From a virus (lineage: Duplodnaviria; Heunggongvirae; Uroviricota; Caudoviricetes), in the IMG/VR virus record IMGVR_UViG_2541047734_000008, positions 1 to 45,329 of that record: a stretch of 45,329 bases of DNA, one strand, 5' to 3'. Each line of letters opens with the position of its first letter. The stretch's first letter is position 1. Under the pieces are notes generated by a model. It ran no database searches, was not told where the DNA came from, and saw nothing but the letters and a program-made list of their open reading frames with translations. Shown here piece after piece: positions 15,634 through 36,430 of this stretch. The translations under genes were made by a program, and so were the position numbers.

Positions 15634-16370
15634 TTAAAGCGAGCGGATGCCCACGCTGATCAGATGTTCAGACAGATCCAGCTCCGGTTCACCACCATTG
15701 ACCAGCATCCGGCTCATTGCTGTAAACATCGCAACAGGGCCGTCGATTTTGGCTTCCAGCGTGGATTTATTCGGGAAGATATTGTCGTTTTTGTCCGGTT
15801 TTACCGTAACGTTAGACATCATCCAGTTCATGACCGGATGATTGCTGTGATGGAAACGCCCGGCATAGACCAGTGATTCCGTTTCCTTCATGGCCTCTGA
15901 CAGATTGCGAACCGTCTGCGGAACCTCCACCAGCGGTATCCCTTCTTCAGCCAGTGCCAGGCTGAACTGCATCGCGCTCCACGGGTCAAATCCCAGTTCC
16001 CTGAGGTTTTCACCACCAATCCATTCCAGTAAGTCACTTTTTATCTGAGCATGATCGATAACATCACCATCCGTCAGAATCAGCTTATCCATCTCCGCCC
16101 ACTTCCGGTAAAGTTCTGCCTGCTGCCGCGAGCATCGTTCCAGCCGTCCTTCCGGAAGCCAGAATTTAAAATCGGCATGAACATGCCCGTTATCCGTTCG
16201 CCAGAGTTTTGCCGCCGCACAGATATCAATCTTATGAGCAAGGTCAACGCCGACCCACATGGGATACGTTTTCAGCTCATGTCGTGGGGCAATGTATTCG
16301 CACTTCTCCCACTTAATCATGTCCATCCAGGCAGACTCTGCTGTTACCCACACATTCATGTGTTTGGTAA
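15634..16370 (-). pseudogene. Prophage terminase large subunit, C-terminal (nuclease-domain) fragment
   Basis: 241 aa ORF (..NVWVTAESAWMD..VGVDLAHKIDICAA..) aligns to the last ~243 aa of the intact island TerL; in-frame upstream codons ..NILTKH end at a stop inside island DNA; no ATPase domain. Confidence 0.85.
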
Positions 16371-16651
16371 GAATATTTCAAGTTTTTTAAAATCACCTGT
16401 ATATCAATCATTTAACATGAAAAAACAGTCTTTATAAATCATCGAGCAATACACAGCGCAATACACGTATCTGTATTGTTTTAATGCTGATACACACCGT
16501 TTTTTGATACAGTGATTCGACCTACCATCGCGAAGCATTTTTTATTTCTTGTGTGTAACAATCTGACGAGGTGAGCACTCAAAGAGATAAGAGGCAGTAG
16601 AAATTTCGATCCCCCCTGAATGCAATTTTTCGTATATATATACAAAACAGT

Positions 16652-16810
16652 GCGGGTTATGCGGGTTAGCGGGTTATCTTCGCGTGCTAAGTATTTTTTA
16701 CTCTTTAATATCAATACGTTAAAAAACAACGTATCTAAATATCAGCCAGAATGTAACCCGCAAGACATTCAAAATAACCCGCAAACACCACTCAAATAAC
16801 CCGCAAAAAC
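16652..16810. repeat. Repeat cluster near island left end: GCGGGTTA x3 tandem (16652..16677) and ATAACCCGCAA x3 in opposite orientation spaced ~22 bp (16755..16810), flanking an AT-rich core
   Basis: Directly visible 8-11 bp repeats in a ~520 bp noncoding stretch downstream of island terL. Confidence 0.7.
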
Positions 16811-16885
16811 ATCCCTGAAAGTGGGTGCCGATAATACTGAAAATTTATTCCATTAAATGAGCATTATCCTCTCTCATCCATTCCG

Positions 16886-18547
16886 TTACACACCATCAAA
16901 CGTCGCAAGCCGCTCTTTGTGGTTGTCGCTCATATCAAATGCAAATTCTTCATGCTCTGCCTGGAATGTGCCAAACGCCATCAGCGCCGCAACGCTCGGG
17001 TCTATCTTGTTGGATGATTTTTTCTTGTTCGGCTTGATATTGGCGTTCGCGTCACTCTGCATCACAACATTACTCATTGACCAGGCCAGCACCGGATCAC
17101 CACGATGCACAATCACCTTCCGGTTAACAAAAACTTCGAACGATTTCGCCGCCGGACTGAAACGAAGGTACGTTTGCGGGAACGGCTCCACCTCAAATCC
17201 TGCGCCCTGTAGCTGCGTCCTCAGGTGCGTGGCGTTCCATGTATCGAAACCCACCAGCCTGATATTGAAATTCTCTGCATCCGCCATGATGTCATCACGG
17301 ATACGGTCATAATCAATGCAGTCACCCGGTGTTGTGCGTATCCAGCCCGCCTTTACCCACTGGCGATAGATGGCGCGGTTTTTATTGGCGGGGTTCTGTA
17401 GCTGAAATTCCGGCAGATAGTGACGGGAAACCAGCATAATCTTTTTACCGACCGGAAAGGCATAGCACACGCTGGAAATATCGCTGGTTGATGATAAGTC
17501 CAGCCCCGCGTAGCACTCCTGCCCGTATAAATCCGCCTCCGCGAACGTTCCGGCGCACTCCGCCCATGCACCGTTACCCATCCACGGCGTGGCCCCCTGA
17601 CACCAGATATTGAATCGCTTGGTGAGCATTTCCACCCACTGCGACGGAATACCCCGCGCTTTCTGGATGGTTGAGGCCAGTTTTTCACGATCGACGGAAA
17701 CATCGATATTGGGATTCGCCTTTATCCACATCGCCGGATCGTCAACCTCGCTTTCATCATCCAGCTCGTAAATCAGCACGAACATGGATTCGTTCACCTC
17801 TTCACCATCCAGTATCTGGCAGCAATAGTCGTAGTGTTGTTTACAGGCTGAAACAACGTTGCTCCCCGATGTGGTGATGGCAAATAATAACCCCTCCGGA
17901 CGCGCCCCCATTCCCAGTTCAAGCGCGGAATAAACCCCGTTGTCAGGGTGCAGGTGATATTCATCCACAATGGCAAGACTCGGGTTTGTACCTTCAATGG
18001 TTGCCGCTTTTGCTGCCAGTGGCTTTAACAGGCTGTTGGTTTTCGGGTGTATCACCTTGTGTGCCTGAATATTTACCCGCTTTCGCAACGGTCGGGATAA
18101 AAGGCACATCTGACACGCATCATCAAACACGATCCGCGCCTGATCACGACTCACGGCGGCGGTGTAAATATCCTGCTGCCCGTTTTCCATAACCAGAAAC
18201 CAGTTAGCCAGGATAGCGGCGACCGTGGATTTGGCATTTTTTCGCGGCACTTCAATGAATGCGCTGGTGTATTTGCGCCGTCCGGTGGCCTTAACCTTAA
18301 AGCCCAGGATGCACGCAAAGGCGAACTGCTGCCACGGCTCCAGCTCAATGGGGCTACCGCGCATTGCGCCTTTTACGTGCGGACACACCCTGGAAAAGGC
18401 AATAAACCGCTCCACGACCTCCGGATCGAACGTGTAAAGGGGGTTTTCAAGGTCAGAAAAATACCGTTTAACGGCCTGTTTCAGTCGTTTACAGGCCGTA
18501 ATTTTGCCGTTTTTTACGCCTTCTGCGTACTCATGCCAGGCGGTCAA
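16886..18547 (-). CDS. Island terminase large subunit (intact)
   Basis: 553 aa; ATPase N-domain and nuclease C-domain; homologous along its length to the two prophage terL fragments. Confidence 0.9.
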   Translation of the reverse strand: MTAWHEYAEGVKNGKITACKRLKQAVKRYFSDLENPLYTFDPEVVERFIAFSRVCPHVKGAMRGSPIELEPWQQFAFACILGFKVKATGRRKYTSAFIEVPRKNAKSTVAAILANWFLVMENGQQDIYTAAVSRDQARIVFDDACQMCLLSRPLRKRVNIQAHKVIHPKTNSLLKPLAAKAATIEGTNPSLAIVDEYHLHPDNGVYSALELGMGARPEGLLFAITTSGSNVVSACKQHYDYCCQILDGEEVNESMFVLIYELDDESEVDDPAMWIKANPNIDVSVDREKLASTIQKARGIPSQWVEMLTKRFNIWCQGATPWMGNGAWAECAGTFAEADLYGQECYAGLDLSSTSDISSVCYAFPVGKKIMLVSRHYLPEFQLQNPANKNRAIYRQWVKAGWIRTTPGDCIDYDRIRDDIMADAENFNIRLVGFDTWNATHLRTQLQGAGFEVEPFPQTYLRFSPAAKSFEVFVNRKVIVHRGDPVLAWSMSNVVMQSDANANIKPNKKKSSNKIDPSVAALMAFGTFQAEHEEFAFDMSDNHKERLATFDGV

Positions 18548-18890
18548 GCTCGTCCTCTTCCTCTGTTTCCGGTGGATTTCTGCGGCGACTTACCGGGTCA
18601 AAACCCAGCAAAGAAGCCATTTTGATCATTATTCTTTCCGCGTCAGCCTTTGCGCTCAGGGCGGGGTTTCTGCTCTCGCTGCCCTGACTGTTAACAATGC
18701 TGAACCCGCGCGTGGCAAGGTCTTCGACGGCTTTGCGGTATATGGAGTAGTTAACGCAATACAGCTCCAGATTGCTCCAGTCGGCGGGGGTAAGGTCTTC
18801 CCGTCCGGAAAGCTGGCGCGATTTTTCCTTCCACTGCCTGACCGCGATTTCATCCAGGTAAGCGGGGGCTTTTGGTGGTCTTGCCATGTT
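18531..18890 (-). CDS. Island terminase small subunit (P27 family)
   Basis: Start placed at MARPPKAPAYLDE.. (compare prophage TerS MSGPPKTPP..); the ORF track's longer start at 19028 adds non-protein-like residues. Confidence 0.75.
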   Translation of the reverse strand, partial: NMARPPKAPAYLDEIAVRQWKEKSRQLSGREDLTPADWSNLELYCVNYSIYRKAVEDLATRGFSIVNSQGSESRNPALSAKADAERIMIKMASLLGFDPVSRRRNPPETEEEDELDRLA

Positions 18891-19175
18891 CTTTTTTCGC
18901 CCAATTATTTTCAAAAAAAATCCCGTGCACAAAAATTTGAGGAGGCGGTCGGTGTCCGGCAGGGACGGTTTCGTCCTGAAAACCTCCCCCACCCCCTCTG
19001 ACAGCCTCACCAGCGATTGCGAAAACATTCCATGACCTCGCGGTCACGGTCGGTTAATCGCTTCGCTGTGGTGCGTTCTGTGCGCCCTGTCCTGTTAGCT
19101 TTGTGCCCTGTCTCCTGTGTCTTCCATAAGTCACGCTGCCTTATCAGTCCACGTATCAGCCTGTTTTGCTCCTGT

Positions 19176-19616
19176 TCAGTCATCATCGCCATACATCCAG
19201 TCGTTACGATGTGCCGCCCGTTCTTCCTGCTCGCGATACATACCCGCCTTACGGTTCGCTTTCGTGGCTGGATCTTCCCGTGTCGTCTTACGGTTGTGGC
19301 ACGTCTGGCACAATGCCTGGTGGTTCCACTCAGGCCAGAAGAGAACATCACCGCCGCCATTGATGGGAATGATGTGATCCACCACAAGAGCTGGCGTATA
19401 AATCCCCTTAGCCAGACAACGCACGCATAACGGGTTTTTGCTCAGGTACAGGGCGCGGTATTTGTCCCACTGTCGGGAATACCCGCGCGCGCGGCGGTGT
19501 CCCCGTCTGGCATCCTCTGCACGCCATGCAGCCCGCCTGTGCTCTTCACACTTGCCGGACTTCACGCGCTTATTACAGCCCGGCTCAGTGCATCGCCTTA
19601 ATGGTTGCCACGGCAT
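19176..19616 (-). CDS. Island HNH endonuclease
   Basis: 146 aa, Cys-rich N-terminus, ..VDHIIPINGGGDV...NHQALCQTCHNRKT.. HNH motif; located upstream of terS. Confidence 0.8.
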   Translation of the reverse strand: MPWQPLRRCTEPGCNKRVKSGKCEEHRRAAWRAEDARRGHRRARGYSRQWDKYRALYLSKNPLCVRCLAKGIYTPALVVDHIIPINGGGDVLFWPEWNHQALCQTCHNRKTTREDPATKANRKAGMYREQEERAAHRNDWMYGDDD

Positions 19617-19915
19617 CAGTACACCCCCACATCACGATAAACCGACCAGAGCGCAGAAATAGCCATAGGCAGTTCAGACTGCTCCACTGGTGAAACTGCT
19701 TCCCTGTTCTCGTACAGGAAAGCGATGTACATCAGGCAACCAACACGCATTGCCGGGGTAAATTCCAGCCCGTCTTCAAAACGTTTCCCGATATGCTTCT
19801 GGCAGGCTTCCAGCGCCGCATCGGTATACATTTTCAGAAGTTCGCCTTCTCCGGAAAAGTCATCAAGGCGAAGATGTGCCCTGACCTCATCAGGTGTAAT
19901 TTTTTCTTCACTCAT
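19616..19915 (-). CDS. Island head-tail connector protein (gp6-like)
   Basis: Start at MSEEKITPDEVRAHLRLDD..; gp6-like. Confidence 0.6.
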   Translation of the reverse strand: MSEEKITPDEVRAHLRLDDFSGEGELLKMYTDAALEACQKHIGKRFEDGLEFTPAMRVGCLMYIAFLYENREAVSPVEQSELPMAISALWSVYRDVGVY

Positions 19916-21122
19916 CTTTTTCACCTTTAATTTCCACCGTCTGCTTCCATGCCTGGCTGAATTCGTCGCCACCTTCGCGCGGCGGCATCCCCTCACGTTC
20001 GCGGGCTTCGTTCGGATTCATGATCCCGTTCTTAATCCCTTTCTCATACGTGGCGTAACGCTCGGTAGGGGTGGCGCGCAGTAAATCGGCTGAATCAAAC
20101 TCAACCAGATAACGGGTACCAGGTACGGGAGAAGCCACCAGCAAAGCGGCCTTGATTTGCTGTTCGAAGTTCGCCAGCCACGGACGCATTGTCATAGTCA
20201 GAAACGCGCGGCTTGCCTCACTGAAATTGCTGTAGGTGCTGTTGCTGTATTCCTGAAGAAAAATCGGCGACACGTTGAACATACGGGCAATGTCTTCAAT
20301 GGAGAAGCGACGGGAGGCCAGCCATTCCGCATCCTGGTTACTCATCCCCAGTTGCCTGTAATCCATGCCCCCTTCAAGGATTGGCGTTTTTCCGGCATTT
20401 TTCGCCCCCTTATAGCGTTCCAGAGCATCTAATGCCTGTTTACCTTTCACGCCGTCCAGCCATTCGCCTGACGTGATAATCCCTGCCGCCATCATGCCAT
20501 CTTTCATAATGCTGGCTCCGTGGCGCTGTTGAGCAAGGCCAAGCCCCAGCGCCTCACGGCAAATCGTGACAGGGGAGCGCCCCAGAAAGCCATCATCCGA
20601 GGCATAGCGGAGATGCAGAACTTCTTCCTGTAAATACGTGCGTACCGTTCCTGTATAGGGTTCGGTGATGGTATAGCGGTATTTGTGTGCGCCTGTGCGT
20701 TCCGGTACAACACACCCCGGCGCATAAGGATGAAGTGATTTTGGCTGACCGTCCCGCCCCCACTCAATAACCGCATAGGCGTTACCGTTCAGCAGGCAGT
20801 GACGCATCATTGTGCGTTTAAACTGGTAAGGTGTCTGGCACGAATTAGGCTGCTCATTCAGCAGAATATCGACCGGGTGACTGTCCAGCCATTCCCGCGC
20901 CTCCCTGCCCTTGTCATTGCGTACCAGATACAGATAACACGGCATCGTGGCCACCGCCTCAGCGATGACAGAAACCGCGTTCATCACAGCAGGCAATGAT
21001 TCAGCCGTCCCGGCAGAAACATATTCTCCGGATCCGGTATTCGGTACGCCGGACAGCGCCAGAAAATCATCAATGGACAGGTTACGCAGATCGCTTTTTT
21101 TACGACTAAAAGGCCACCACAT
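19908..21122 (-). CDS. Island portal protein
   Basis: About 405 aa from MWWPFSRKKSD..; HK97-type portal, homologous in places to the prophage portal (..RPMILEMGLDW.. versus ..TPILEGGMDY..). Confidence 0.85.
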   Translation of the reverse strand: MWWPFSRKKSDLRNLSIDDFLALSGVPNTGSGEYVSAGTAESLPAVMNAVSVIAEAVATMPCYLYLVRNDKGREAREWLDSHPVDILLNEQPNSCQTPYQFKRTMMRHCLLNGNAYAVIEWGRDGQPKSLHPYAPGCVVPERTGAHKYRYTITEPYTGTVRTYLQEEVLHLRYASDDGFLGRSPVTICREALGLGLAQQRHGASIMKDGMMAAGIITSGEWLDGVKGKQALDALERYKGAKNAGKTPILEGGMDYRQLGMSNQDAEWLASRRFSIEDIARMFNVSPIFLQEYSNSTYSNFSEASRAFLTMTMRPWLANFEQQIKAALLVASPVPGTRYLVEFDSADLLRATPTERYATYEKGIKNGIMNPNEAREREGMPPREGGDEFSQAWKQTVEIKGEKDE

Positions 21123-21123
21123 A

Positions 21124-21684
21124 TCACAACCCCGCCAGTTCAGCCCAGCGATGACGATTATTTCCTGTCGGGCGTAATTCAGGGTGCTGTGCAAACAACG
21201 AACGGTGGGCAATCTCCACGCCGGATTCGGGATAAGCAGGCATCGACGTTATCGTGATTTCACGGAGTTCTGCGGCGGTAACAGTGCGCAGATACGGTTT
21301 TTGCGCGATATTCCACTCTTCGCATAATGCGCGAAAGCCAAAGCTCATTCCTGTAATGTCGCCACGCTCCACCAGCGTAAGCACATCTTTTCCAAGCTGG
21401 GTATCAGGCGGTGTCAGTTCAAAACGTAGCCCGGTGTTGTCCTCAGTCAGTACCAGTGTTCCGGATTTGGTGCGCCCCAGCAGTCGGGTATAGTCATGCT
21501 CATACAGGCAGCGCACATCATTACCCGCCGCCAGATAGTCAGCAAAAGCCCCCGGCGTGAACTGTTCGCGGAATTCGTCCCAGATAATTTCTGAAAGGCT
21601 GTTCCAGCGAACGGCATAACCCACCAGTTTTTTATCGCTGGCGGTCAGTTCAGATGTACGGATTTCAAAATCGGTATTTTGCAT
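21124..21684 (-). CDS. Island prohead protease
   Basis: Start at MQNTDFEIRTSEL.. (Met 73 of track ORF), ..KKLVGYAVRWNSLSE.. Confidence 0.8.
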   Translation of the reverse strand: MQNTDFEIRTSELTASDKKLVGYAVRWNSLSEIIWDEFREQFTPGAFADYLAAGNDVRCLYEHDYTRLLGRTKSGTLVLTEDNTGLRFELTPPDTQLGKDVLTLVERGDITGMSFGFRALCEEWNIAQKPYLRTVTAAELREITITSMPAYPESGVEIAHRSLFAQHPELRPTGNNRHRWAELAGL

Positions 21685-21733
21685 CGGTGTACTCCATAAA
21701 GCTGAAAAAGGAGGCCGAAGCCCCCTTTGCTCA

Positions 21734-22879
21734 TTACTTGCCAGCCTGAATTTCCAGAATCTTGATGGCGTTCGAATCCACCACACCACCGCCCAGATAT
21801 TTCTGGGTATAGATGTTAATGAATCCAGGTTCGCTGAAATCCGGACGGGTACGCGTACCGGTTTCATGGTCAACGATGAAATAACCGCGCTTAAAGTCAC
21901 CTACTGCAATCACACCGTCCGGCATAAATTCCAGATATTCAACCGGAAGCCCCAGCAGAGAATCAGGATCACCAGCCTGTAAACGATCGCGCCAGATGTA
22001 ATCACCAGTGGCATTTTTCAGTTTTTGTGCGGAGGCGGCTGTATTTGAGTTCATCACCCATACAGCTTTTTTGCGGTACTTATTGCGCAGCGTAAATTTC
22101 AGGTCAATCAGCATGTCGGCGCTGAGACTGCCAGTAACTTTTTTCGTCTGGAGCGTACCGAAAGGACGGGTTTTGTCGTTATCCGCAGTGCGCGGAAAAG
22201 CCAGGAAACCTTTAGCTTTTTTCTCGCCATCACCGGAAACCAGATCCGTTTCTTCGGTATCAACGAAAGTGTCGCCAATTTCAGAAGATAACCAGCTCAT
22301 AATATCGACTTCGGAAAAATCGATAATTTCCTGAGTGGTTTTTGGGTAAGCGTAGATCGGATACAGGCGGATACTGACTTCATTCAGTTTTGGGGTTGCC
22401 GTCTGGTTACGTGTAGTGCCTTCTTCACCGTGTTCAACGACCGCGCCCCCGGCAGAAACCAGTTGCTTAAATTCATTGCTGTGAATGGTTTTAACAGTAC
22501 AGATTTTACGCATCACCGATTCATCAGAAAGCTGACGCATAATTTCTCTGTTCAGTTCCGGGATAACCGTATAACCACCATCAGCCGGGACACTGCCGGA
22601 CAGGTTGCGGGTTTCCCCGGTCAGAATGTAAGAGCGCAGTTCGTCTTTGGTTATTTTCTCTTCGACGGAAACACCAGGCTGGTTACGTTCTTCATCAGCC
22701 ACAGATTCGAGGCGGGAAATTTCTGTGTCGAGGGAATCGGCTTTTGCACGCAGTTCATCAAACTGTTTGCCCTCGTCATCGTTCAGGCTGCGGTTTTCAC
22801 TGTCGGCTTTTTCCAGCAGGGATCGCATCTGGTTTTTCAGGGCGGTTTTTTGCTGGCGGAGTTCGATTAATTTCTTCAT
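21734..22879 (-). CDS. Island major capsid protein (HK97 family)
   Basis: 381 aa; coiled-coil delta domain then ..KGFLAFPRTADNDKTRPFGTLQ..GYFIVDHETGTR..; parallels the prophage capsid. Confidence 0.9.
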   Translation of the reverse strand: MKKLIELRQQKTALKNQMRSLLEKADSENRSLNDDEGKQFDELRAKADSLDTEISRLESVADEERNQPGVSVEEKITKDELRSYILTGETRNLSGSVPADGGYTVIPELNREIMRQLSDESVMRKICTVKTIHSNEFKQLVSAGGAVVEHGEEGTTRNQTATPKLNEVSIRLYPIYAYPKTTQEIIDFSEVDIMSWLSSEIGDTFVDTEETDLVSGDGEKKAKGFLAFPRTADNDKTRPFGTLQTKKVTGSLSADMLIDLKFTLRNKYRKKAVWVMNSNTAASAQKLKNATGDYIWRDRLQAGDPDSLLGLPVEYLEFMPDGVIAVGDFKRGYFIVDHETGTRTRPDFSEPGFINIYTQKYLGGGVVDSNAIKILEIQAGK

Positions 22880-23152
22880 GAAGGTTTTCTCGTATTGGTT
22901 AAGATTCAGGACGTGAAACCAACACGGAGGGAGCGCCGCCCGACACTCTCGGCATCTCGCAGATCAACCCGGCATCGCGCAGGGGTCAGGCGGCATTGTG
23001 GCGGCTCACGTCTGAGTGCCACACGCCAACATATACATAAAAATCAGTATGTAAACATCAGCCAGAATCACCGAACAACCTGGAACAACCACGAACAAAT
23101 AATTTACAAAACCTGAAAAAAAGACCCGGGAAAAATCCGGGCCTTTATCGCT

Positions 23153-23401
23153 TTATTGTTTCACTGGATCCCGCATTCTGCGTCTTATTTTCCACAGATA
23201 TTCGATCATCGCTTCCACCTGCTCACGGTTGGTTGCGAAAATTTCCCCGGTCAGTGAGCTACGCAGAAAATCATGATGATCCACAACAAACAACGCATCG
23301 GAAGAAAGCAGACGGCGATATTTTTTTGCTGTCGTGGTTTCCAGATCATCAAAACCATGAAACTTTTTATGTTGCTGGACTTCTTCAAATGTCACTGGCA
23401 T
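23153..23401 (-). CDS. Island hypothetical protein
   Basis: 82 aa ORF in operon orientation. Confidence 0.4.
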   Translation of the reverse strand: MPVTFEEVQQHKKFHGFDDLETTTAKKYRRLLSSDALFVVDHHDFLRSSLTGEIFATNREQVEAMIEYLWKIRRRMRDPVKQ

Positions 23402-23934
23402 GTATCCCCCTTTGCTGCCCGGCGCTGGCGCTTGTGCTTCTCATTCAGCGCCATCAGCCGCGTTTCTGCCTCCTGCTGTTCCTGTGGTGTCACTTCCCCA
23501 CATGGCTGGCCTTTCAGGTCGTAGCGTACCCCACCAGCAACCAGGGCGCGGTAATAGCGCGGAGACTGCGCATAAGATGCCAGCGTCGCACGTAATGCCC
23601 CCGGCCCGAATGCCAGCCCCCTGACGGCGAGATCCTGCATCAGGTCGTCGAATATTCCCACCTTAAGCGGCTTCGGTGCTTCCCTGTTGAATAAGTCAGG
23701 CCACATCTCAGTGAGGCGGTTAACGCGCCTGCGGTTTTTGCGCTGGCGTTTGGTCATATGCCGCCACGGTGTCACCCCTGTGGGCTGCCCTTTGCGGCTC
23801 TGCTGTGCGTTCTGATTGCCGGGTATCACTTTATGCGCCGATGTGGTTTTATCCCGCTCTTGCGCCGCCTGCGTCGTTTTCTGCGGCGTGCCGTAAATGC
23901 CTTTCGGTTTTCGGTTAATGGTCAGCTTTGTCAT
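23392..23934 (-). CDS. ProQ/FinO-domain RNA-binding protein (island)
   Basis: 180 aa, basic N-terminus, ..LTEMWPDLFNREAPKPLKVGIFDDLMQDL...RATLASYAQSPRYYRALVAGGVRYDLKGQP.. resembles the FinO/ProQ fold signature. Confidence 0.6.
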   Translation of the reverse strand: MTKLTINRKPKGIYGTPQKTTQAAQERDKTTSAHKVIPGNQNAQQSRKGQPTGVTPWRHMTKRQRKNRRRVNRLTEMWPDLFNREAPKPLKVGIFDDLMQDLAVRGLAFGPGALRATLASYAQSPRYYRALVAGGVRYDLKGQPCGEVTPQEQQEAETRLMALNEKHKRQRRAAKGDTCQ

Positions 23935-23970
23935 GCCTTCCCCTGTAATTACTCTGTTCGCTGTTGTGAA

Positions 23971-24396
23971 TTAAAACGGTATGTTATCCCCGTACAGGTC
24001 ATCGTGCTGGCCTGTCTGTTGTTTTGCCCTGTTCAGTGCGTCAGTAGCTTGGCTCTGCTGGCCTTTTTTGCCGCCCGGTCGCGCCGTTCGCGCACTGATT
24101 ACGCTGTCTGCGATGACCTGCCAGCCCTGCCGCGTTTCGCCGTTCTGGCCTGTCCACTGGCTCACCTGCATGTTACCCGCCACGCTCACCAGTTCGCCTT
24201 TGTGGTGCTTTGCCAGTGCGTCGGCCTGTCTGCCAAACGCCAGGACGGATAACCACATCGTCGCCGTTCCGTCATCTGCCTGGCTGCACGGCAGGGGAAC
24301 CGCCATACTCGCCATCGCCATTTGTGTCCCCTTGCTGGTGGTCTTTAACTGCGGGTCAGCCACCAGCCGCCCGTAAGCCGCTATCTGTGCTGTCAT
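23971..24396 (-). CDS. Single-stranded DNA-binding protein (island)
   Basis: 141 aa OB-fold-like with acidic C-terminal tail ..DDLYGDNIPF. Confidence 0.75.
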   Translation of the reverse strand: MTAQIAAYGRLVADPQLKTTSKGTQMAMASMAVPLPCSQADDGTATMWLSVLAFGRQADALAKHHKGELVSVAGNMQVSQWTGQNGETRQGWQVIADSVISARTARPGGKKGQQSQATDALNRAKQQTGQHDDLYGDNIPF

Positions 24397-24644
24397 GCTG
24401 TCTGCTCTCCGGTTTTAACGTTGATGGTTGTCACCTGTTCCGCTTCGGCAATCTCCCGCTCTGTCAGCGTGGCAAAATTTGCCGCCGCCGTGGTCATGAA
24501 TGCGCTTATCAGTTCGGGATGTGCTTTCGCGTATCCTTCTCCGGCATGGCGGTCTATTGTTCTGATTGCCACCTTTAAGGCATGCTCTGTCATGTCTAAT
24601 GCGCGATATTTTGGCGCTGTCTTATCTCTGGTTTTTCTGGTCAT
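24393..24644 (-). CDS. Island hypothetical protein
   Basis: 83 aa; overlaps ssb start. Confidence 0.4.
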   Translation of the reverse strand: MTRKTRDKTAPKYRALDMTEHALKVAIRTIDRHAGEGYAKAHPELISAFMTTAAANFATLTEREIAEAEQVTTINVKTGEQTA

Positions 24645-24648
24645 TCCT

Positions 24649-24848
24649 CACTGCTCCCCACTTTTACTACCCACTTTTTGAAATTACCCAACGTCTCCCC
24701 ACTTCTTTTTTTTGTGATTCTAACGTGATGTTTTTCAATGTATTTTTTATTCCCCACTTTTTGGGGTATATACAGGTGGGAAAGTGGGGAATCGCGTTTC
24801 AATTTTGTTAAATTCCCCACACTCCCCACTTTTACTACCCACTTTTTA
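24649..24848. repeat. Iteron cluster / candidate island replication origin next to rep
   Basis: TCCCCACTTTTACTACCCACTTTTT at 24649 and again at 24822; additional CCCCACTT copies in both orientations; AT-rich centre. Confidence 0.7.
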
Positions 24849-26261
24849 CAGTGGGCGCACGTCATCACCGTCAATAGCAATAACGCCATCACCTTCCAGC
24901 TTGTACAGCCAGCGCCGGAAGTGTTTCATCTCATACCCCAGCTTTTTCATATCATCGCGCAACAACGGAATTGTGCATTTATCGCCGCGCTGTGTGCGTG
25001 AACGGATACAGCCCCATAGCGCGGCATGATTCTCCGTCTTGTTCCCGGCTTCCTCGATGCGCTCCAGTTCAACAGGTGGGCGCGGCTTATCCACAACCAC
25101 CAGCGACGTGATTAACTCCCCGTCAGTGTCGGTAAAAAGCTCTACCACGCGTAAATCATATGCAGCCTCTTTCAGTTCCTCCGCGTCCTTCATTTTGGTA
25201 CAGGAGATAACCAGGGCTTCACTGTCCGCACCTTCACGGCGAATACGGTATTCAGCGTCCAGAGATGCACGGAATGCACTGGAACCACGCGCTCCCTTTG
25301 TTTCATCCTTGCCGGAATGGTGAACCACCAGCACCGTGGCCCCTGTGCGTCGTTTCAGTTCGTCACATCCACGGATAAACGCCCCCATATCCCGCGCGTC
25401 ATTTTCATCATTACCGCCAAAACACCGCGCCAGCGTATCCAGAATAATCATGCGTACCGGTTTACCCGTTTCCCTTTCAACCTGGCGGGAAGCGATGACC
25501 ATTTCATCGACATCAAGCGGGACTGCCGGAAAAATCGGGCGGTTTACCAGGTACAGATTTTCCACCCGTTTATCATTAACGATTTCCCATGCCTTGATAC
25601 GGCGGGGGACACCAATGCCACCTTCACCGACAACATACATCACCGAACCATGCGCCACCCTGCGGCCTCCCCAGTGGCGACCCGTGGCAACATGACACGC
25701 CCAGGAACACGCGAGGAACGATTTATAGGAACCGCTCGCGCCGTATGTGCTGCACAATGAATTAGCCGGAATCACGCCCTTAACGACATAATCAAGCTGT
25801 GTGTCGTATCCTGCAGATCCAATACTCATTGGTAGCGTGGTTTTTCGCTGGCTGTATTGCTCGTCAGTAAGTATTTCCCCGCGCTCTGCCTGTTCGCGGA
25901 TCCGTTGCAGGTAGTCGTGCCAGTTCTCCAGCTTCTGGTTGTGCATTCCCTCAGGGTAATAATTCGCATCCCGTACACCTGCCGCCGCCAGCTTTTGCCC
26001 GATAGCATTAATATTTGACGGCTTGATGTGGCCTGCCTTGTACAGCCGGACACAATAGCGACCATCGTCGATAATTTTCAGGTCTGCCAGTTCGTCAAGC
26101 TGGCTGTCTCCAAGCCATACAGGCGGAACATTGTCGCCAGCAAGTCGCCCGTCCTGCTCCTGCCATTGTTTCGCGTGCGCCCAGGCATCACTACCCGCAA
26201 AAATAATGACTTCGGTCATTTTGTCGTGCGGCTGTTTTTTTAAGTTCGGTGCCAGTTTCAT
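24846..26261 (-). CDS. Island replication initiator: primase/helicase-type Rep (RecA-like AAA ATPase)
   Basis: 471 aa; Walker A-like GASGSYKSF, Walker B MIILDTL; sits beside iterons as PICI pri-rep genes do. Confidence 0.7.
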   Translation of the reverse strand: MKLAPNLKKQPHDKMTEVIIFAGSDAWAHAKQWQEQDGRLAGDNVPPVWLGDSQLDELADLKIIDDGRYCVRLYKAGHIKPSNINAIGQKLAAAGVRDANYYPEGMHNQKLENWHDYLQRIREQAERGEILTDEQYSQRKTTLPMSIGSAGYDTQLDYVVKGVIPANSLCSTYGASGSYKSFLACSWACHVATGRHWGGRRVAHGSVMYVVGEGGIGVPRRIKAWEIVNDKRVENLYLVNRPIFPAVPLDVDEMVIASRQVERETGKPVRMIILDTLARCFGGNDENDARDMGAFIRGCDELKRRTGATVLVVHHSGKDETKGARGSSAFRASLDAEYRIRREGADSEALVISCTKMKDAEELKEAAYDLRVVELFTDTDGELITSLVVVDKPRPPVELERIEEAGNKTENHAALWGCIRSRTQRGDKCTIPLLRDDMKKLGYEMKHFRRWLYKLEGDGVIAIDGDDVRPL

Positions 26262-26557
26262 TTTTTCCCCCTGAATCCGTTAAGCATTTTTCTTATGGCC
26301 TGAATATTTGCCCGTGCCTTCTCTTTGCTGGTGGGCTGATTGCGCGGCGCGGTCTGTACCAGGGAAAAATCACGCCGGAACTGATAAACAGGCATCACAC
26401 AGTCATAGCCGTACCCATCACGGCGGTAAATAACGCACCGTCCCGCCACGCTTTTAATCGTTACCGTGCCGCCATAGTTATCCCGGAAAATATCGCCGGG
26501 GCGGATTTCAGGCCGAACGGAGCCGCTGGCAGTAAAGCCAGAATTTTTCTGTTTCAT
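26258..26557 (-). CDS. Island hypothetical protein
   Basis: 99 aa ORF, operon context. Confidence 0.4.
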   Translation of the reverse strand: MKQKNSGFTASGSVRPEIRPGDIFRDNYGGTVTIKSVAGRCVIYRRDGYGYDCVMPVYQFRRDFSLVQTAPRNQPTSKEKARANIQAIRKMLNGFRGKK

Positions 26558-26562
26558 GGTTT

Positions 26563-26772
26563 TTATTCCTCTGCGCGGGCCTTGTTGTGTATTTCCATAA
26601 CCGCGTTTAATTCATCAATAACCGGGGTTAACAGAGTGCTGAAAGCAGAAAATAAATCCCCCCCCTGTTCGGCATGAACTTCGGTTAATTTAATTAATAC
26701 TGCTTTCATTTCCAGTGCCCGGTTTAATGCATTCTCAGAATGAATAAGAACATCGAAAGGGATTTTATCCAT
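26563..26772 (-). CDS. Island hypothetical protein
   Basis: 69 aa ORF. Confidence 0.35.
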   Translation of the reverse strand: MDKIPFDVLIHSENALNRALEMKAVLIKLTEVHAEQGGDLFSAFSTLLTPVIDELNAVMEIHNKARAEE

Positions 26773-27025
26773 GGCTTACATCCTCCGTGAATTTTCTTCT
26801 GTACCGTGCCTCTGCCACATATTCCGCATAGTCCGACGCAATATTGAGAATATCGCTACCCGTTCCTGAATGTTCGGCGGTTTCCAGTAAAAAACTTGCA
26901 GCTTTTACCATGTCAGCAACACATAACAGCGCAATATCTGTATCTTCCGGTGCGCCATCAAATTCCTGTTTCAGGGCATTAAAACGATCATCACGCATAA
27001 CCCCCCCCATTTTCACAATCAGCAA
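26765..27025 (-). CDS. Island hypothetical protein
   Basis: 86 aa ORF. Confidence 0.35.
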   Translation of the reverse strand: MLIVKMGGVMRDDRFNALKQEFDGAPEDTDIALLCVADMVKAASFLLETAEHSGTGSDILNIASDYAEYVAEARYRRKFTEDVSHG

Positions 27026-27230
27026 TTAGGATGGCTTTAGCCTCATTCAGTGCCATATCAGCGGTAAGCTGTGCGTAGGCCAGCGAATGGGGGATTATTT
27101 CCCCTGTATATTCCGTCTCTCTGGTAATGTGTTTTTCTGCGGTTGCTGCCGTGCATGAAATATCAATCAGCGCGTGCATCAGCGTTTTGATGGCTTCGGC
27201 GGCTGCGTCCGGACGGGTGTTATTGCACAT
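26991..27230 (-). CDS. Island hypothetical protein
   Basis: 79 aa ORF. Confidence 0.35.
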   Translation of the reverse strand: MCNNTRPDAAAEAIKTLMHALIDISCTAATAEKHITRETEYTGEIIPHSLAYAQLTADMALNEAKAILIADCENGGGYA

Positions 27231-27426
27231 GGCGCACCCCCTGACGAATACGGGCGGCGAATACCATCACACAGCCAGCCGGGGATTGCTGGCGTGCTTC
27301 CTGTTCGCTGGTGGCCTCAATGGTAATCACGCGCGGTTGTGCCGTGCTCAGGGCGATAAAACGCCAGATATATTTATTCAGGTTGTGCGAGTCCCGCCCT
27401 TGCGGGTGTGTGGTATGATTTCTCAT
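27220..27426 (-). CDS. Island small protein, first gene of leftward operon
   Basis: 68 aa from MRNHTTHPQGRDSHNLNKYIWRFIALSTAQP..; GAGG RBS; the track's 358 aa extension upstream is not protein-like. Confidence 0.45.
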   Translation of the reverse strand: MRNHTTHPQGRDSHNLNKYIWRFIALSTAQPRVITIEATSEQEARQQSPAGCVMVFAARIRQGVRHVQ

Positions 27427-27502
27427 AGCTACCTCGATACTCTTGCTATCGTTGGTGGTTAGACGCCCTGCATGTGTTGCGAGCACTGCGGGGCGTTGCT
27501 TA

Positions 27503-27603
27503 ATTTGAGTGACAAAACTCAAACTGTGCGCACAGATTAAAATCATGTGTGCGCACATGTCAATACTTAACATCTCATTTTTTTTGCTGTATTGTGTGCG
27601 CCC
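27503..27603. promoter_or_regulatory. Divergent regulatory region with palindromic operators TGTGCGCACA
   Basis: TGTGCGCACA at 27525..27534 and 27549..27558 (within CATGTGTGCGCACATG), half-site GTGTGCGC at about 27593; lies between divergent gene starts 27426 and 27632. Confidence 0.55.
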
Positions 27604-27631
27604 ATAAAGTCCATTTAAGTGAGGTGCATCA

Positions 27632-27829
27632 ATGTCTAGCGGTAACACAAACAACAAATCAGCAAAGAAAAATATTCGATTCCCACATGAGCTTATAGAT
27701 GGGATTGATGCCAGCGTTGAACAAGAAAAATTAACTAATCCTAGTGCTAATTTTTCCGCATGGGTCTTAGATGCCTGTGGACGCAAATTAAAATATGAAC
27801 AGCGCCGGAAGGCCAAAGAATCAGAATAA
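27632..27829 (+). CDS. Small ribbon-helix-helix (Arc/MetJ-like) DNA-binding protein, candidate island regulator
   Basis: 65 aa; ..KKNIRFPHELIDGIDASVE..NFSAWVLDACGRKL.. beta-strand plus two helices pattern. Confidence 0.5.
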   Translation: MSSGNTNNKSAKKNIRFPHELIDGIDASVEQEKLTNPSANFSAWVLDACGRKLKYEQRRKAKESE

Positions 27830-27871
27830 TCACTATCAGCGCCGTGGTGTGAGTAACTACGGCGCATTGCT

Positions 27872-28060
27872 ATGCAGGACAACACAATGACCGATAAAGA
27901 ATTGACCAAAACATTATCACCGACACGGAAAAGACGGCGCAGAAAGATAGAGCATGAATCAGAAAGATTCGCACCTTGTTCGTTTGCTCTTGAGAAATTC
28001 CTTAAAGAGCGCAGGAAAAAGCTCTCGTTGCAAACCCTGGAACGAACCAAATCTGACTGA
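27872..28060 (+). CDS. Island hypothetical basic protein
   Basis: 62 aa ORF downstream of the RHH gene. Confidence 0.35.
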   Translation: MQDNTMTDKELTKTLSPTRKRRRRKIEHESERFAPCSFALEKFLKERRKKLSLQTLERTKSD

Positions 28061-28126
28061 TCACATTGCCCACCAGCCGCAAATGTGGCATTGTTGGTGA
28101 TGCTTTTGTTTTCCCTTGTTCCCACT

Positions 28127-28155
28127 GGCGACCCTTTTGCGGTCGCCTTTGTTTT
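28127..28155 (+). terminator. Intrinsic terminator
   Basis: GGCGACC-CTTTTGC-GGTCGCC followed by TTTGTTTT. Confidence 0.6.
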
Positions 28156-28251
28156 GCCTGTTATCCGGCAATAGTGGCGCTTCGTCACCTGTCTGATATA
28201 ATTCCACAGCTTATATTCATTTTTTGCGCAGTAGGTTAATTGTTCGCAAGG

Positions 28252-28282
28252 GCGCTCCGGCAACGGGGCGCTTTTTGTTTTT
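28252..28282 (+). terminator. Intrinsic terminator (GNRA-loop hairpin)
   Basis: GCGCTCCG-GCAA-CGGGGCGC followed by TTTTTGTTTTT. Confidence 0.6.
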
Positions 28283-28440
28283 ACCCACCAGCACAATAAA
28301 AATCTTCATTTTCCATTTTTGTAAAATTTCATGCTTTCCGGACGACTGGTCATATGTCATTTTTTAGCAGAAGATTTTGCCTTGCTGGTGGGTAGCTTCC
28401 CGGTCAACACGATGTACCGTATAATCAACACCGCGTGTGG

Positions 28441-29019
28441 TTACTGAATACGCTCACCAAAGTAAAACTCAGGCTGGTATTCACGTATCAGCCTTTTTTC
28501 TTCTTCCTCCAGCTCACGCTTTTTGCGCTTACATGCCTGTAGCTCCCTCCCCTTCTCACTGGCACTTATCTGGTATTGCTCTTTGCGGCGGGAAAAATCC
28601 TGTAATGCGCCCCACGGGATACCATAAGCCCCCGTTTTTCTGATACCCGGTATCACATTTCTGAATACCCAGTTACTGAAACGATGAGCAAATGTGCCAG
28701 GCGTCGTTGCTTTGCGGCTGCGGGCTATTAGTTTGTAGAAACCTGACTCGGAGATAATGCTCATATTCTGATTTCCTCCGGGGGTGTAAGTTAAATTTAC
28801 TCCCTTTTCGTCATCATCAAGCATCTGCAACGCCGTACGCGAATTGGTCAGTTCCAGCGCAGCACAAACATCCTTTGCAACAAACCACGGATCGCCGTTT
28901 AGATACACCACACGAACATCCACGCCATCAAAGCGCAGAACGACCAGATCACGAATATCACAGAATTTTTTCACATGACGTGCGTCACCCTTGCCCGTCA
29001 CGGCAATATTTTTATTCAT
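28441..29019 (-). CDS. Bro-N domain protein (antirepressor-like)
   Basis: 192 aa; ..FDGVDVRVVYLNGDPWFVAKDVCAALEL.. Bro-N signature. Confidence 0.7.
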   Translation of the reverse strand: MNKNIAVTGKGDARHVKKFCDIRDLVVLRFDGVDVRVVYLNGDPWFVAKDVCAALELTNSRTALQMLDDDEKGVNLTYTPGGNQNMSIISESGFYKLIARSRKATTPGTFAHRFSNWVFRNVIPGIRKTGAYGIPWGALQDFSRRKEQYQISASEKGRELQACKRKKRELEEEEKRLIREYQPEFYFGERIQ

Positions 29020-29076
29020 TGCTTTTTACCTCACATACAAAAAACCCCGCATTGCGTGGTGCGGGGTTGTCGGTAA

Positions 29077-29355
29077 TTACTTATTGGCGTTTTTGTATGG
29101 GCTGTTTACTTCCTTTACTCCTGGCGGATGCATAACCCACCAGAGCACATCAGAGAGCAACCAGGAAACAGACACTTTCCCTAAATGAGCACGAGCAGGA
29201 AATGCTCCCTCCTGTTCAAGTACCCAACGTCTGCTTCTTGAAAGCCCGGTACGATTGGCACACTCATGTTCGCGTATACGGCGATCATACGGTTCGCCAT
29301 GATCTTTCAGAATCTGAATGCGTTCTTCGGGTGTAGGATAAATAAATTTTTGCAT
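29077..29355 (-). CDS. AlpA-family transcriptional regulator (second copy)
   Basis: Start at MQKFIYPTPEE..; AlpA-type HTH. Confidence 0.6.
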   Translation of the reverse strand: MQKFIYPTPEERIQILKDHGEPYDRRIREHECANRTGLSRSRRWVLEQEGAFPARAHLGKVSVSWLLSDVLWWVMHPPGVKEVNSPYKNANK

Positions 29356-29418
29356 AAAAATATCACCTATAAAAAAACCCGCCAAAAGACGGGTTGATTA
29401 TATCTCATTTAATTTAGC

Positions 29419-29652
29419 TCAGGGTTTCCATTCACCTTTTACCCATTCCAGCACCTCAGATAAGCGCCAGACTTTTGTTTGTGGGCCAATACATATTTTT
29501 CGTGGAAATTTTCCTTCCTTTTCAAGTAACGATCTGTGTCTCCTGCCAAGAGCGGTTAACCATGCACATTCATCTTCCTTAATCATCCTGTCGATTGTTT
29601 CATCATTTTCAAGTTCTTCACGCGTAACTATTTGAATCATTACTGTCACCAC
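29419..29652 (-). CDS. AlpA-family transcriptional regulator
   Basis: 77 aa; ..KICIGPQTKVWRLSEVLEWVKG..; immediately downstream of int. Confidence 0.7.
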   Translation of the reverse strand: MVTVMIQIVTREELENDETIDRMIKEDECAWLTALGRRHRSLLEKEGKFPRKICIGPQTKVWRLSEVLEWVKGEWKP

Positions 29653-30841
29653 TAATTTGCTTATTCAGATAGTCGTACCACCAGTTCATAGCTTCTTTTT
29701 TTCTGTCCATATACTGGCTTCTGTTATAAACCCCGGCAACACCGCCTAATGTGTGCCCAAGCAACTGTTCAACCACATTATGTTCAAAACCATGATCACT
29801 TAGTTTTGTGGCAAACACTCTTCGCATATCATGCGCCGTCCATTTCTCCGAGTGTTTCATCCTTTTCCATGTCTTACCGATAGTTACGCTTGCCGTACAC
29901 TGACGCATATCAAACCCAATCACATTTTCTTTGTTACCTGTTATTTTTTTTAACGTAACTAACCAGTTAAACATGCCATCAGGAATCGGTCTGATTATTT
30001 CCCTGCCATTTTTGCTATGATCAGCGGGAACGCGCCATAATTTCTTATCAAAATCCCACTCTACCCAGGACGACAGTAATACTTCTGACAGTCGACAACC
30101 AAAAACTACCAGGAAACGTAAAATAATTCGGTTTTCATATGATAATTCGTGATTGTCATAATCAGTATTAATACTTCGCCATAAATCTCTGATTTCATCA
30201 TCTGTTAAAACCCTGCTTCTTCGCGCAGACTTTTTTCCCACATCACAGACCTCAAGATCATCAATTTCATGACTAATCGCGTATTTTCTTACCCTACAAA
30301 ATTTAAGCGCCTGTTTTGATATACGCAACAAAGCTCCGGCCTGTACAGGTGCTACTTTTTTTATTTTGTCAAAACACTTAATCCACATAGATATAGAGCA
30401 ATCACTAAGTGGTACATGACCAATCACCGGATAAATATGTTTACCAAAGCACTGCCTGATATGTTCTGCTCCCCTACGCTTATCCATTGCATAATTATCA
30501 AGCCAGTATTCAAGTGCCTCACGAACGGTAACAGGTTGCAAGGTGGCTTCCCGTTCAATTTTTATCTGAATCCGTGGATCTCTGCCCTCCGCAAGCCAGG
30601 TTCGACACTGATCGCGCATCTCTCTCGCTGATTTGAGACTCAGATCAGGATATTTTCCAAGTGTCAGCCAGATGGGCGCGGTTCCCCTTCCCGCCAGTCT
30701 GTAAAAGAAAACAAAACTAACACATCCGTATTTACTGACCCGTACCGAAAGCCCGTTACCATCAGCGATGGTTTCCTGCCTCTCACTCCTGCGTCCAAGC
30801 AGGGAACGAAGTTTTTTATCGCTCAGTTTGTTTAGCGCCAT
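29618..30841 (-). CDS. Tyrosine integrase (P4-type)
   Basis: Start at MALNKLSDKKLRSL..; C-terminal catalytic region ..HDMRRVFATKL...LLGHTLGGVAGVYNRSQY..; adjacent to the island boundary. Confidence 0.9.
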   Translation of the reverse strand: MALNKLSDKKLRSLLGRRSERQETIADGNGLSVRVSKYGCVSFVFFYRLAGRGTAPIWLTLGKYPDLSLKSAREMRDQCRTWLAEGRDPRIQIKIEREATLQPVTVREALEYWLDNYAMDKRRGAEHIRQCFGKHIYPVIGHVPLSDCSISMWIKCFDKIKKVAPVQAGALLRISKQALKFCRVRKYAISHEIDDLEVCDVGKKSARRSRVLTDDEIRDLWRSINTDYDNHELSYENRIILRFLVVFGCRLSEVLLSSWVEWDFDKKLWRVPADHSKNGREIIRPIPDGMFNWLVTLKKITGNKENVIGFDMRQCTASVTIGKTWKRMKHSEKWTAHDMRRVFATKLSDHGFEHNVVEQLLGHTLGGVAGVYNRSQYMDRKKEAMNWWYDYLNKQISGDSNDSNSYA

Positions 30842-31012
30842 GTGATTTATAACCCGTTTTTGCAATACACAGTGCAATACACAAATGATGAAAACAGCCA
30901 GAACCTTCCAGAAAAAACAAAAACGACGAACAAGAAAAAATCTTTTTCTTTCATTTGGTTACTAAAAAAATCAGGACAGGTCGCACTGTTGTTACGGCGT
31001 GATGTTACTTTC

Positions 31013-36016: not shown

Positions 36017-36092
<76 letters not shown>

Positions 36093-36094
36093 AT

Positions 36095-36171
<77 letters not shown>

Positions 36172-36172
36172 A

Positions 36173-36249
36173 CTGGACCGCCACCGGGGACTCGAACCTC
36201 GCACACTCAACTTAAAGGGTTGACGCTCTTTCCTGATGAGCTAGTGGCG
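36173..36249 (-). tRNA. Atypical tRNA-like gene, anticodon UUU (Lys) by position, with C at position 33
   Basis: Acceptor CCGCCAC/GTGGCGG, anticodon stem TCAAC/GTTGA, loop CCTTTAA, T-loop TTCGAGT with one T-stem mismatch, CCA encoded. Confidence 0.5.
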
Positions 36250-36250
36250 G

Positions 36251-36326
36251 CTGGTGGCCCTTGCTGGATTTGAACCAGCGACCTGGCGATTATGAGTCGC
36301 TCGCTCTCACCACTGAGCTAAAGGGC
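36251..36326 (-). tRNA. tRNA with CAU anticodon (Met or lysidine-modified Ile2)
   Basis: Acceptor GGCCCTT/AAGGGCC, anticodon loop CTCATAA, T-loop TTCAAAT, CCA encoded. Confidence 0.75.
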
Positions 36327-36430
36327 CGGGCGCAGGATAATAACGTTACGAAATCAATGTTGCAAGCATTCAAAAATCACCCTTATCTCCTCCACTAGCG
36401 CATTCACCATGTCTATCCGAGATAAGTGGC

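Follow-up and report, generated by a model that had tools for sequence, protein, structure and literature searches.

Identification of a ProQ/FinO-domain gene in a phage satellite

The analyzed window is the complete 45,329-nucleotide (nt) stretch of IMG/VR virus record IMGVR_UViG_2541047734_000008, in which a satellite island is inserted into the large terminase gene (terL) of a prophage. Within this island, an open reading frame (ORF) on the minus strand encodes a protein of 180 amino acids (aa) and is referred to here as proQ (Table 1). Its location between the capsid module and the gene of the single-stranded DNA-binding protein (ssb), as described in the original prediction made from the DNA sequence and its ORFs, was confirmed, with ssb lying upstream and the capsid gene downstream. 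The gene starts with an ATG codon, a start on which all 29 aligned relatives agree, and is preceded at a distance of 5–6 nt by the Shine-Dalgarno sequence GGGGAAGG, while the plus-strand ORFs overlapping it are mechanical. The predicted product is 100% identical to WP_000164226.1, which carries the name “ProQ/FINO family protein” assigned by the Prokaryotic Genome Annotation Pipeline.

The affiliation of the protein was examined on the levels of sequence profile and fold. The sole Pfam match in the 180-aa protein is to PF04352 (ProQ/FinO); it spans residues 68–172 and profile positions 5–108 of 109 with an E-value of 9.2e-25 and 87.2 bits, far above the gathering cutoff of 27 bits, and only 8 residues remain after the domain. 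A search of the PDB with the single sequence retrieved the N-terminal domain of ProQ (5nb9, 5.8e-12) and FinO (1dvo, 2.8e-11) as well as NMB1681 and RocC, and the E-values of the two former sharpened to 1.7e-19 and 4.9e-17, respectively, when a profile of the 30-member clade was used. The scores against the NCBIfam models for FinO (NF010317; 64.7 bits, cutoff 136) and for the ProQ equivalog (NF003434; 58.6 bits, cutoff 127) remained below the respective subfamily cutoffs. An AlphaFold2 model built on the clade alignment of 30 members had a predicted local distance difference test (pLDDT) score above 90 over aa ~61–170, and aa 1–55 are disordered (pLDDT <50). Foldseek comparison of this model with the PDB yielded 26 matches with E ≤ 1e-3, all of them structures of the FinO domain (NMB1681, RocC with and without RNA, FinO, and Lpp1663), whose fold is a helical bowl with a β-hairpin, with target-normalized TM-scores of up to 0.85; the next match had an E-value >2. 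The fold resemblance that had been noticed from the sequence is thus supported by profile, PDB sequence matches, and predicted structure, and also by conserved pocket residues as detailed below. The ORF encodes a bona fide ProQ/FinO-domain protein, and its product is very probably an RNA-binding accessory protein of the FinO-domain type.

Table 1. Features of the proQ locus and the surrounding island (positions refer to the window).
Feature	Position	Strand	Basis and remarks
Entire capsid-forming satellite of the phage-inducible chromosomal island (PICI) type, ~14.7 kb, in prophage terL	16355..31024	minus	Split terL with rejoinable frame, (G/A)TGAAT core; related islands L001 and L011 alike
HK97-type capsid gene, downstream of proQ	21734..22879	minus	Pfam
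Intrinsic terminator ending the early operon	23116..23146	minus	AAAGGCCCGG-loop-CCGGGUCUUU + U-tract; fold -19.5 kcal/mol
orf82, 82 aa	23153..23401	minus	phrog_1957; 10-nt overlap of its start with the proQ stop; distribution follows the capsid module, not ProQ
proQ, 180-aa ProQ/FinO-family protein	23392..23934	minus	ORF list; Pfam PF04352, 87.2 bits; 100% tblastn identity to annotated gene in related island L001
FinO domain, codons 68–172	23419..23733	minus	Pfam; pLDDT >90; Foldseek 3mw6/7rgt/7rgu/1dvo/6s10; pocket G93, Y127, R137 and backbone contact R115
N-terminal extension, codons 1–67, disordered and basic	23734..23934	minus	pLDDT <50 (aa 1–55); isoelectric point 11.75; motif MTKLTINRKPKG
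ssb, single-stranded DNA-binding protein (SSB)	23971..24396	minus	Pfam SSB 3.9e-16; TIGR00621; 36-nt gap to proQ
orf83, 83 aa	24393..24644	minus	phrog_1231; overlaps ssb start
Putative origin, GTGGGGA-type iterons	24645..24845		Between repA and orf83; sequence reading, function inferred
RepA-type helicase/replicase (AAA_25)	24846..26261	minus	Pfam PF13481, 3.1e-44; annotated in L001 as “helicase RepA family protein”
DUF4222 ORF, stop overlaps repA start	26258..26557	minus	Pfam; inverted repeat CTGGC-N6-GCCAG at 26526-26541
Icd-like ORF, at the head of the apparent early operon	27220..27426	minus	Sequence reading; Icd-like annotation in L001, L011, L012; ~91% DNA identity across islands
Putative divergent promoter/operator	27528..27600		Minus-strand -35 TTGACA + T-rich -10, overlapped by TGTGCGCACA palindromes; sequence reading
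YlcI/YnfO-like gene, 65 aa, divergent	27632..27829	plus	
AlpA-type regulator gene alpA	29077..29385		Pfam
Integrase gene int	29618..30877		Pfam

Predicted RNA-binding pocket and domain architecture

To locate the putative RNA-binding site, contact residues were taken from the RocC–RocR terminator complex (PMC9674577) and mapped via profile alignment. Gly52, Tyr87, and Arg97 of RocC, which form the pocket for the 3′ nucleotide, correspond to G93, Y127, and R137, and Arg75, which contacts the RNA backbone and tail, corresponds to R115. Y127 and R137 are present in all 30 clade members and G93 and R115 in at least 90% of them, and in 121 diverse relatives obtained by an exhaustive profile search G93, Y127, and R137 are kept in 107, 119, and 118 proteins, respectively. 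Binding of structured RNA consisting of a terminator hairpin with a 3′-OH tail is predicted.

The basic N-terminus noted in the original prediction is pronounced, with 15 K/R versus 2 D/E among the first 67 residues and a basic patch, TKRQRKNRRR, within the extension. The extreme N-terminus MTKLTINRKPKG (LTINRKP) and that of IncFII FinO, MTEDKRPTLSLKRKPG, have the motif L-[ST]-[LI]-x-R-K-P in common. A looser form of it, [LIVM][ST][LIVM]x[RK][KR], occurs in 21 of 146 diverse family representatives, as compared to 0.5% of shuffled N-termini. At the C-terminus the model contains one helix only, with neither a linker nor a Tudor-like C-terminal domain. The protein is thus built like FinO rather than like ProQ: the FinO domain is preceded by a basic disordered N-terminal extension and leads into a short C-terminal helix or tail of basic character.

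FinO of F-like plasmids has the same domain (37% identity over 90 aa, and a fold match to 1dvo), a similar length (186–194 aa versus 180 aa), a basic disordered N-terminal extension carrying the above motif, and no Tudor-like C-terminal domain; its gene likewise resides on a mobile element, where it lies distally in a long operon. In contrast to FinO, however, the clade studied here is borne by chromosomal islands and was never found on plasmids among complete E. coli genomes, and no FinP/traJ system or co-travelling RNA gene was detected at this locus by Rfam search or enrichment test. Enterobacterial ProQ provides the best PDB sequence match (5nb9), and its residues R58, Y70, and R80 are equivalent to R115, Y127, and R137, but the satellite protein lacks the linker and Tudor-like domain of ProQ and is encoded by an accessory, horizontally moving gene instead of a core chromosomal one. 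RocC of Legionella and NMB1681 of Neisseria are the best structural matches (target-normalized TM-score 0.82–0.85), and Gly52, Tyr87, Arg97, and Arg75 of RocC are all retained. RocC differs by its long C-terminal extension and its single trans-acting small RNA (sRNA) partner, whereas NMB1681 consists of the minimal domain and lacks a long basic extension at its N-terminus; both belong to other hosts and genetic contexts.

These features also bear on the view that the gene is decaying cargo, derived from a plasmid-borne FinO-like gene and merely drifting. A frameshifted copy in E. coli ABU 83972 and truncated versions in the databases would fit such decay. Against it, the ORF described here is intact, positional conservation amounts to 79–82% across the domain and both conserved motifs, and the pocket residues Y127, R137, and G93 are retained across the clade. 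Moreover, the closest plasmid proteins are at most 40% identical, and the proQ clade is therefore regarded as an old, maintained lineage. Decay is thus hardly a credible explanation.

The satellite island and its apparent early operon

The genetic element carrying proQ had been described as a satellite, and its gene content bears this out. It encodes an integrase, two helix-turn-helix/AlpA-type regulators, a replicase, and a complete HK97-type head and packaging module (capsid, protease, portal, connector, HNH, terS, and terL), of which capsid, terS, and terL are covered by Pfam matches here and the full module is annotated in L001, a related island that is 97–100% identical. The tail and lysis genes within the window are those of the flanking prophage. 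Because it has a head module of its own without own tail and lysis genes, the island is a capsid-forming PICI (cf-PICI) type satellite. Further content includes a BRO-N protein and small ORFs.

The insertion splits terL into an N-terminal (30847..32040) and a C-terminal fragment (15634..16359), which rejoin in frame (…ARVN|VWVTAES…) across the (G/A)TGAAT core, and the same terL insertion is present in E. coli 2014C-3075, where it affects an Stx1d prophage, and in FELIX_MS724. Satellites residing within prophages have been reported in general (PMC10085698). In the present case, the prophage must lose the island by excision to regain terL. Just inside the island ends, at 30860-30882 and 16442-16466, lie imperfect 21-bp direct repeats, GTGTATTGC(A/G)CTGTGTATTGC, which are probably arm-type sites of the integrase or att-associated sites. 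The prophage is lambdoid, and nearly all island genes are co-oriented with its late operon, so that late transcription of the helper could read into the island.

On the minus strand, the genes are arranged in the order icd-like … DUF4222-repA-origin-orf83-ssb-proQ-orf82-terminator, and the ORFs overlap or are closely packed. Between ~27,540 and 23,150, scanning and reading of the sequence revealed no site on the minus strand that resembles a terminator, with the exception of the operator palindrome at 27559-27544. The putative origin contains several iterons, including two 26-nt copies of AAAAAGTGGGTAGTAAAAGTGGGGAG on either side of an AT-rich core. At the upstream end of the gene string, three copies of the palindrome (TGT)GCGCACA overlap the TTGACA -35 element within the control region 27528-27632, and the promoter scan identified a plus-strand promoter-like site (27567..27595) for the YlcI/YnfO-like gene. 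Because of the overlap between the palindromes and the -35 element, this divergent region is likely the repressor switch of the island. Judged from the gene string, its single terminator, and the putative upstream promoter/operator, proQ appears to occupy the last position but one in the satellite's early replication operon.

The terminator closing this operon has A-U pairs beneath the closing G-C pair, and in the related islands L001 and L034 one of its C:G pairs is replaced by T:A, a compensatory exchange. Such A-U pairs occur in 28 of the 33 top ligands of ProQ and are absent from the ligands of FinO (PMC12001967). In this respect the operon terminator resembles typical ProQ ligands and differs from the ligand of FinO, in which two purines are mismatched below the stem. 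The majority of ProQ-positive island types have a terminator located 137–657 nt after proQ.

Downstream, the minus-strand interval 22880-23117 between the early terminator and the capsid gene contains a promoter-like site (23055-23028) and a GC-rich leader of ~150 nt, which folds strongly (-54.8 kcal/mol) and in which GATGCCG motifs recur. This interval may serve to control the late (packaging) genes of the satellite.

Distribution and accessory status of proQ

A megablast search of 5426 complete E. coli genomes detected proQ in 338 of them, with up to 5 copies each, and all 386 places were chromosomal. Plasmid-encoded FinO-type proteins are at most 40% identical, over the domain only, and phage records contained distant relatives only. 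A profile search of a representative library of 1.84 billion proteins retrieved 4783 family members with E ≤ 1e-3, of which 20 reached E ≤ 1e-30. A contig scan added only two loci because the patterns used were clade-specific. By these sequence comparisons, the proQ clade forms a narrow enterobacterial branch within a large family.

The islands of the relatives have the gene order int-alpA-…-icd-…-DUF4222-replicase, with three unrelated replicase types (RepA/AAA_25, DUF927, and D5_N primase), and downstream they carry a capsid module or other cargo. The first ~130 codons of repA encode an N-terminal domain of ~130 aa that directly follows DUF4222 and is common to all three replicase families (53–61% identity in comparisons with islands L002, L008, L009, and L011-L014). 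The arrangement points to a shared adaptor domain to which exchangeable replicase bodies are joined.

For counts of presence and absence, 59 further islands were fetched via DUF4222. Within this set SSB is near universal, ProQ is encoded by 10 islands, and PerC by ~20. PerC-family genes fill the same slot after ssb (in L008, L009, L011, L012, and many of L016-L074), and in L011, a sister cf-PICI at the same terL site, PerC is found where ProQ would stand. In the 13 cf-PICIs sampled, ProQ (3 islands) and PerC (9 islands) never occur together, and 1 island lacks both; in classical PICIs the ProQ and PerC genes are often adjacent. Based on its presence in 10 of 59 islands and its replacement by PerC in L011, proQ is an optional cargo gene that occupies a variable slot of AlpA-type enterobacterial PICIs and cf-PICIs and has no core satellite function.

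The same comparisons were informative with regard to the neighbors of proQ. A partnership with orf82 was considered and rejected, since this gene tracks the capsid module and is found in ProQ-less cf-PICIs. Obligatory coupling of ProQ and SSB was likewise rejected. The latter result also affects the view that the protein is not a post-transcriptional regulator but a replication accessory, which would act together with SSB on DNA or RNA-DNA hybrids in primer or single-stranded DNA handling. Its gene does adjoin ssb in most islands and lies inside the replication module just past the origin. However, ProQ occurs without SSB in L008, L013, and L038, and most islands (~45) have SSB but lack ProQ. 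The conserved pocket of RocC, furthermore, touches both the 2′ and 3′ hydroxyls of the terminal ribonucleotide (PMC9674577). A role in DNA handling is thus considered very unlikely.

Search for an RNA partner and candidate ligands

The known plasmid systems raise the question of whether the island encodes a dedicated RNA for its FinO-type protein. In a classical pair of the FinO/FinP type, a single cis-encoded antisense RNA would repress a key satellite gene, for example that of the replicase or the packaging operon. Such an arrangement would agree with the FinO-like architecture and with the fact that all characterized plasmid FinO-like proteins serve one element-encoded RNA system (PMC9977716). 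A candidate in the island is an invariant plus-strand hairpin followed by a T-run (26526-26551), antisense to the start of DUF4222, which was compared in 8 and then in 47 distinct sequences.

Several searches speak against this arrangement. Neither FinP, C4, nor any other regulatory RNA, and hence no antisense-RNA family, was found in the island by Rfam (gathering threshold for the whole window; E ≤ 5 for 16–31 kb). Promoter-like sites are not over-represented (11 found versus 16 ± 4.4 expected from shuffled sequence), and the promoter and terminator scans revealed no convincing antisense promoter-terminator pair around proQ. In a tile-by-tile enrichment test of 17 ProQ-positive against 45 ProQ-negative islands, the proQ ORF itself was the only segment linked to ProQ presence. 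Because no other DNA segment co-travels with proQ, a FinP-like partner cassette is unlikely. The hairpin at 26526-26551 was rejected as evidence for a partner RNA, as its stem is invariant without covariation and it is equally present in islands without ProQ. A dedicated FinO/FinP-type pair thus appears improbable.

The inverted repeat CTGGC-N6-GCCAG (26526-26541), which covers codons 6–11 of DUF4222, is invariant in 46 of 47 distinct sequences, three synonymous positions included, whereas its loop and nearby synonymous sites vary, and the first ~75 nt of the DUF4222 ORF are near identical even where the remaining protein is only 47% identical. Possible explanations of the repeat are a hairpin in the RNA, an operator in the DNA, and a boundary of recombination.

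All Rfam matches within the window are confined to the flanking prophage, which contains the antitoxin RNA sok (39221-39396, minus strand, 111.9 bits), the sRNA DicF (44877-44928, plus strand, 76.7 bits), and a cluster of four tRNA genes (Met, Lys, Thr, and Gly; 36018-36327, minus strand). These are structured RNAs that a FinO-type protein could in principle meet.

Proposed role of the satellite protein

The overall best explanation, which we regard as reasonably probable, is that proQ encodes a FinO-like RNA-binding protein, carried as optional cargo, that acts on 3′ ends of the terminator type. It would be made together with the replication genes upon de-repression of the island and would dock on the base and U-tail of intrinsic-terminator hairpins, while its basic tails would protect the bound 3′ ends or promote RNA-RNA pairing. 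Satellite, helper, or host transcripts present after induction would be the ligands. The original prediction had suggested that the protein could modulate helper or host RNAs, a conjecture that the comparison of islands refines, as proQ is optional and travels without a partner-RNA cassette. Since no partner-RNA cassette travels with proQ, these ligands are most likely already supplied by all such islands, by the helper, or by the host.

Characterized FinO-domain proteins of mobile elements (FinO, FopA, and PcnR) all regulate transfer or replication genes of their own element (PMC9977716) and so control its spread or copy number. FopA (IncI1 pCol1B9) and PcnR (IncI2) restrain the replication initiator of the element that encodes them, and PcnR binds a stem-loop within a short leader ORF directly preceding repA and thereby represses this gene (PMC9977716). 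In the satellite, the small DUF4222 ORF has a stop overlapping the replicase start and an invariant 5′ hairpin, reminiscent of the arrangement targeted by PcnR. The preferred targets might thus be early transcripts of the satellite itself, namely the 3′ end formed by the operon terminator and/or the leader hairpin of DUF4222 and the replicase, and the outcome would be a FopA/PcnR-like feedback on replication gene expression. However, the systems are likened here by description, the replicases of the islands are of unrelated helicase and primase types, and the hairpin also exists without ProQ. This narrower assignment of the satellite's own early transcripts as the target class, together with the feedback, is accordingly offered as a tentative possibility that we consider doubtful.

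Several observations weigh against an action of the protein on such 3′ ends and early transcripts. Both the operon terminator and the DUF4222 hairpin occur in ProQ-less islands, and because of this the candidate targets are independent of ProQ. The hairpin has a stem of only 5 bp with no compensatory changes and no strand preference, and the initial ~75 nt of the DUF4222 ORF are unusually conserved as a whole. The minus-strand early promoter was not called by the promoter scan, which is the reason why the early promoter/operator is treated as inferred. Finally, the helix N-cap S-K-S-K of RocC (region of Ser70, Lys71, and Lys73), whose Ser and Lys side chains contact phosphates of the RNA and which is S-H-K-K in plasmid FinO, reads G-P-G-A in the satellite protein. 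A defective domain due to loss of these Ser and Lys residues was considered and rejected: the N-cap position is occupied by S in 41, G in 26, and T in 24 of 121 family members, and since Gly is the second commonest residue, G-P-G-A is probably a normal variant rather than a loss.

The same cargo protein might instead be directed at the host. As a moron-like regulator it would mimic, compete with, or supplement chromosomal ProQ and reshape the sRNA and messenger RNA network of the host to the benefit of the lysogen or the satellite. The slot that it occupies is also used, and sometimes shared, by PerC-family proteins, which are thought to act on host transcription. Its patchy distribution (10 of 59 islands; 338 of 5426 genomes, up to 5 copies) and the lack of an island-specific partner RNA co-travelling with proQ fit such cargo as well, and the ligands of host ProQ are generic terminator structures (PMC12001967; PMC9977716). 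On the other hand, the promoter scan found no own promoter 5′ of orf83-ssb-proQ, and proQ lies inside an operator-controlled early operon, so that expression in uninduced cells is doubtful. Furthermore, N-terminal extensions of the FinO type go along with narrow specificity (PMC9977716). We consider a host-directed function rather unlikely.

A more ambitious variant of the favored explanation, an action on terminator-type 3′ ends, would be that the protein is a dedicated riboregulator of the conflict between satellite and helper, which clamps specific 3′ ends or leader hairpins after induction. Candidate ligands would be the DUF4222-replicase leader hairpin, in a PcnR-like manner, or antisense and antitoxin RNAs of the helper or host. 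This proposal is unlikely in our estimation. If true, the protein would time satellite replication relative to packaging or blunt RNA-based controls of the helper or host, and through its action in trans a single ProQ-positive island could also provide for co-resident islands that lack ProQ but have the same RNA elements.

Implications

The family assignment of the protein is already public in RefSeq and nothing in its sequence is surprising; it represents an uncharacterized clade of a well-known family. A literature search for functional studies of a ProQ/FinO protein of PICIs or cf-PICIs returned mentions on the annotation level only. Such annotations list ProQ/FinO-like genes in the Enterobacter cloacae PICI AVS0889 (PMC13612085) and in Vibrio episomal cf-PISP elements (PMC13230959), in both cases among accessory or maintenance genes; the Vibrio elements differ from the island described here in being episomal and in also carrying parA/repA. 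Phage- and island-borne members are mentioned in general in a review of the family (PMC9977716).

The interest of the finding is thus modest and arises from the satellite context and the testable hypotheses that follow from it, not from the protein as such or from a novel type of system. Among bacterial RNA chaperones, FinO-domain proteins form the third major class, and phage satellites are abundant drivers of gene transfer; to our knowledge, post-transcriptional control in phage satellites is essentially unexplored. The genes of a distinct and conserved FinO-type clade are repeatedly found at the 3′ end of the early operon in enterobacterial PICIs and cf-PICIs, where they follow three different replicases and alternate with PerC. 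This clade offers a genetically tractable entry point to the question of whether satellites use RNA chaperones against their helpers or hosts.

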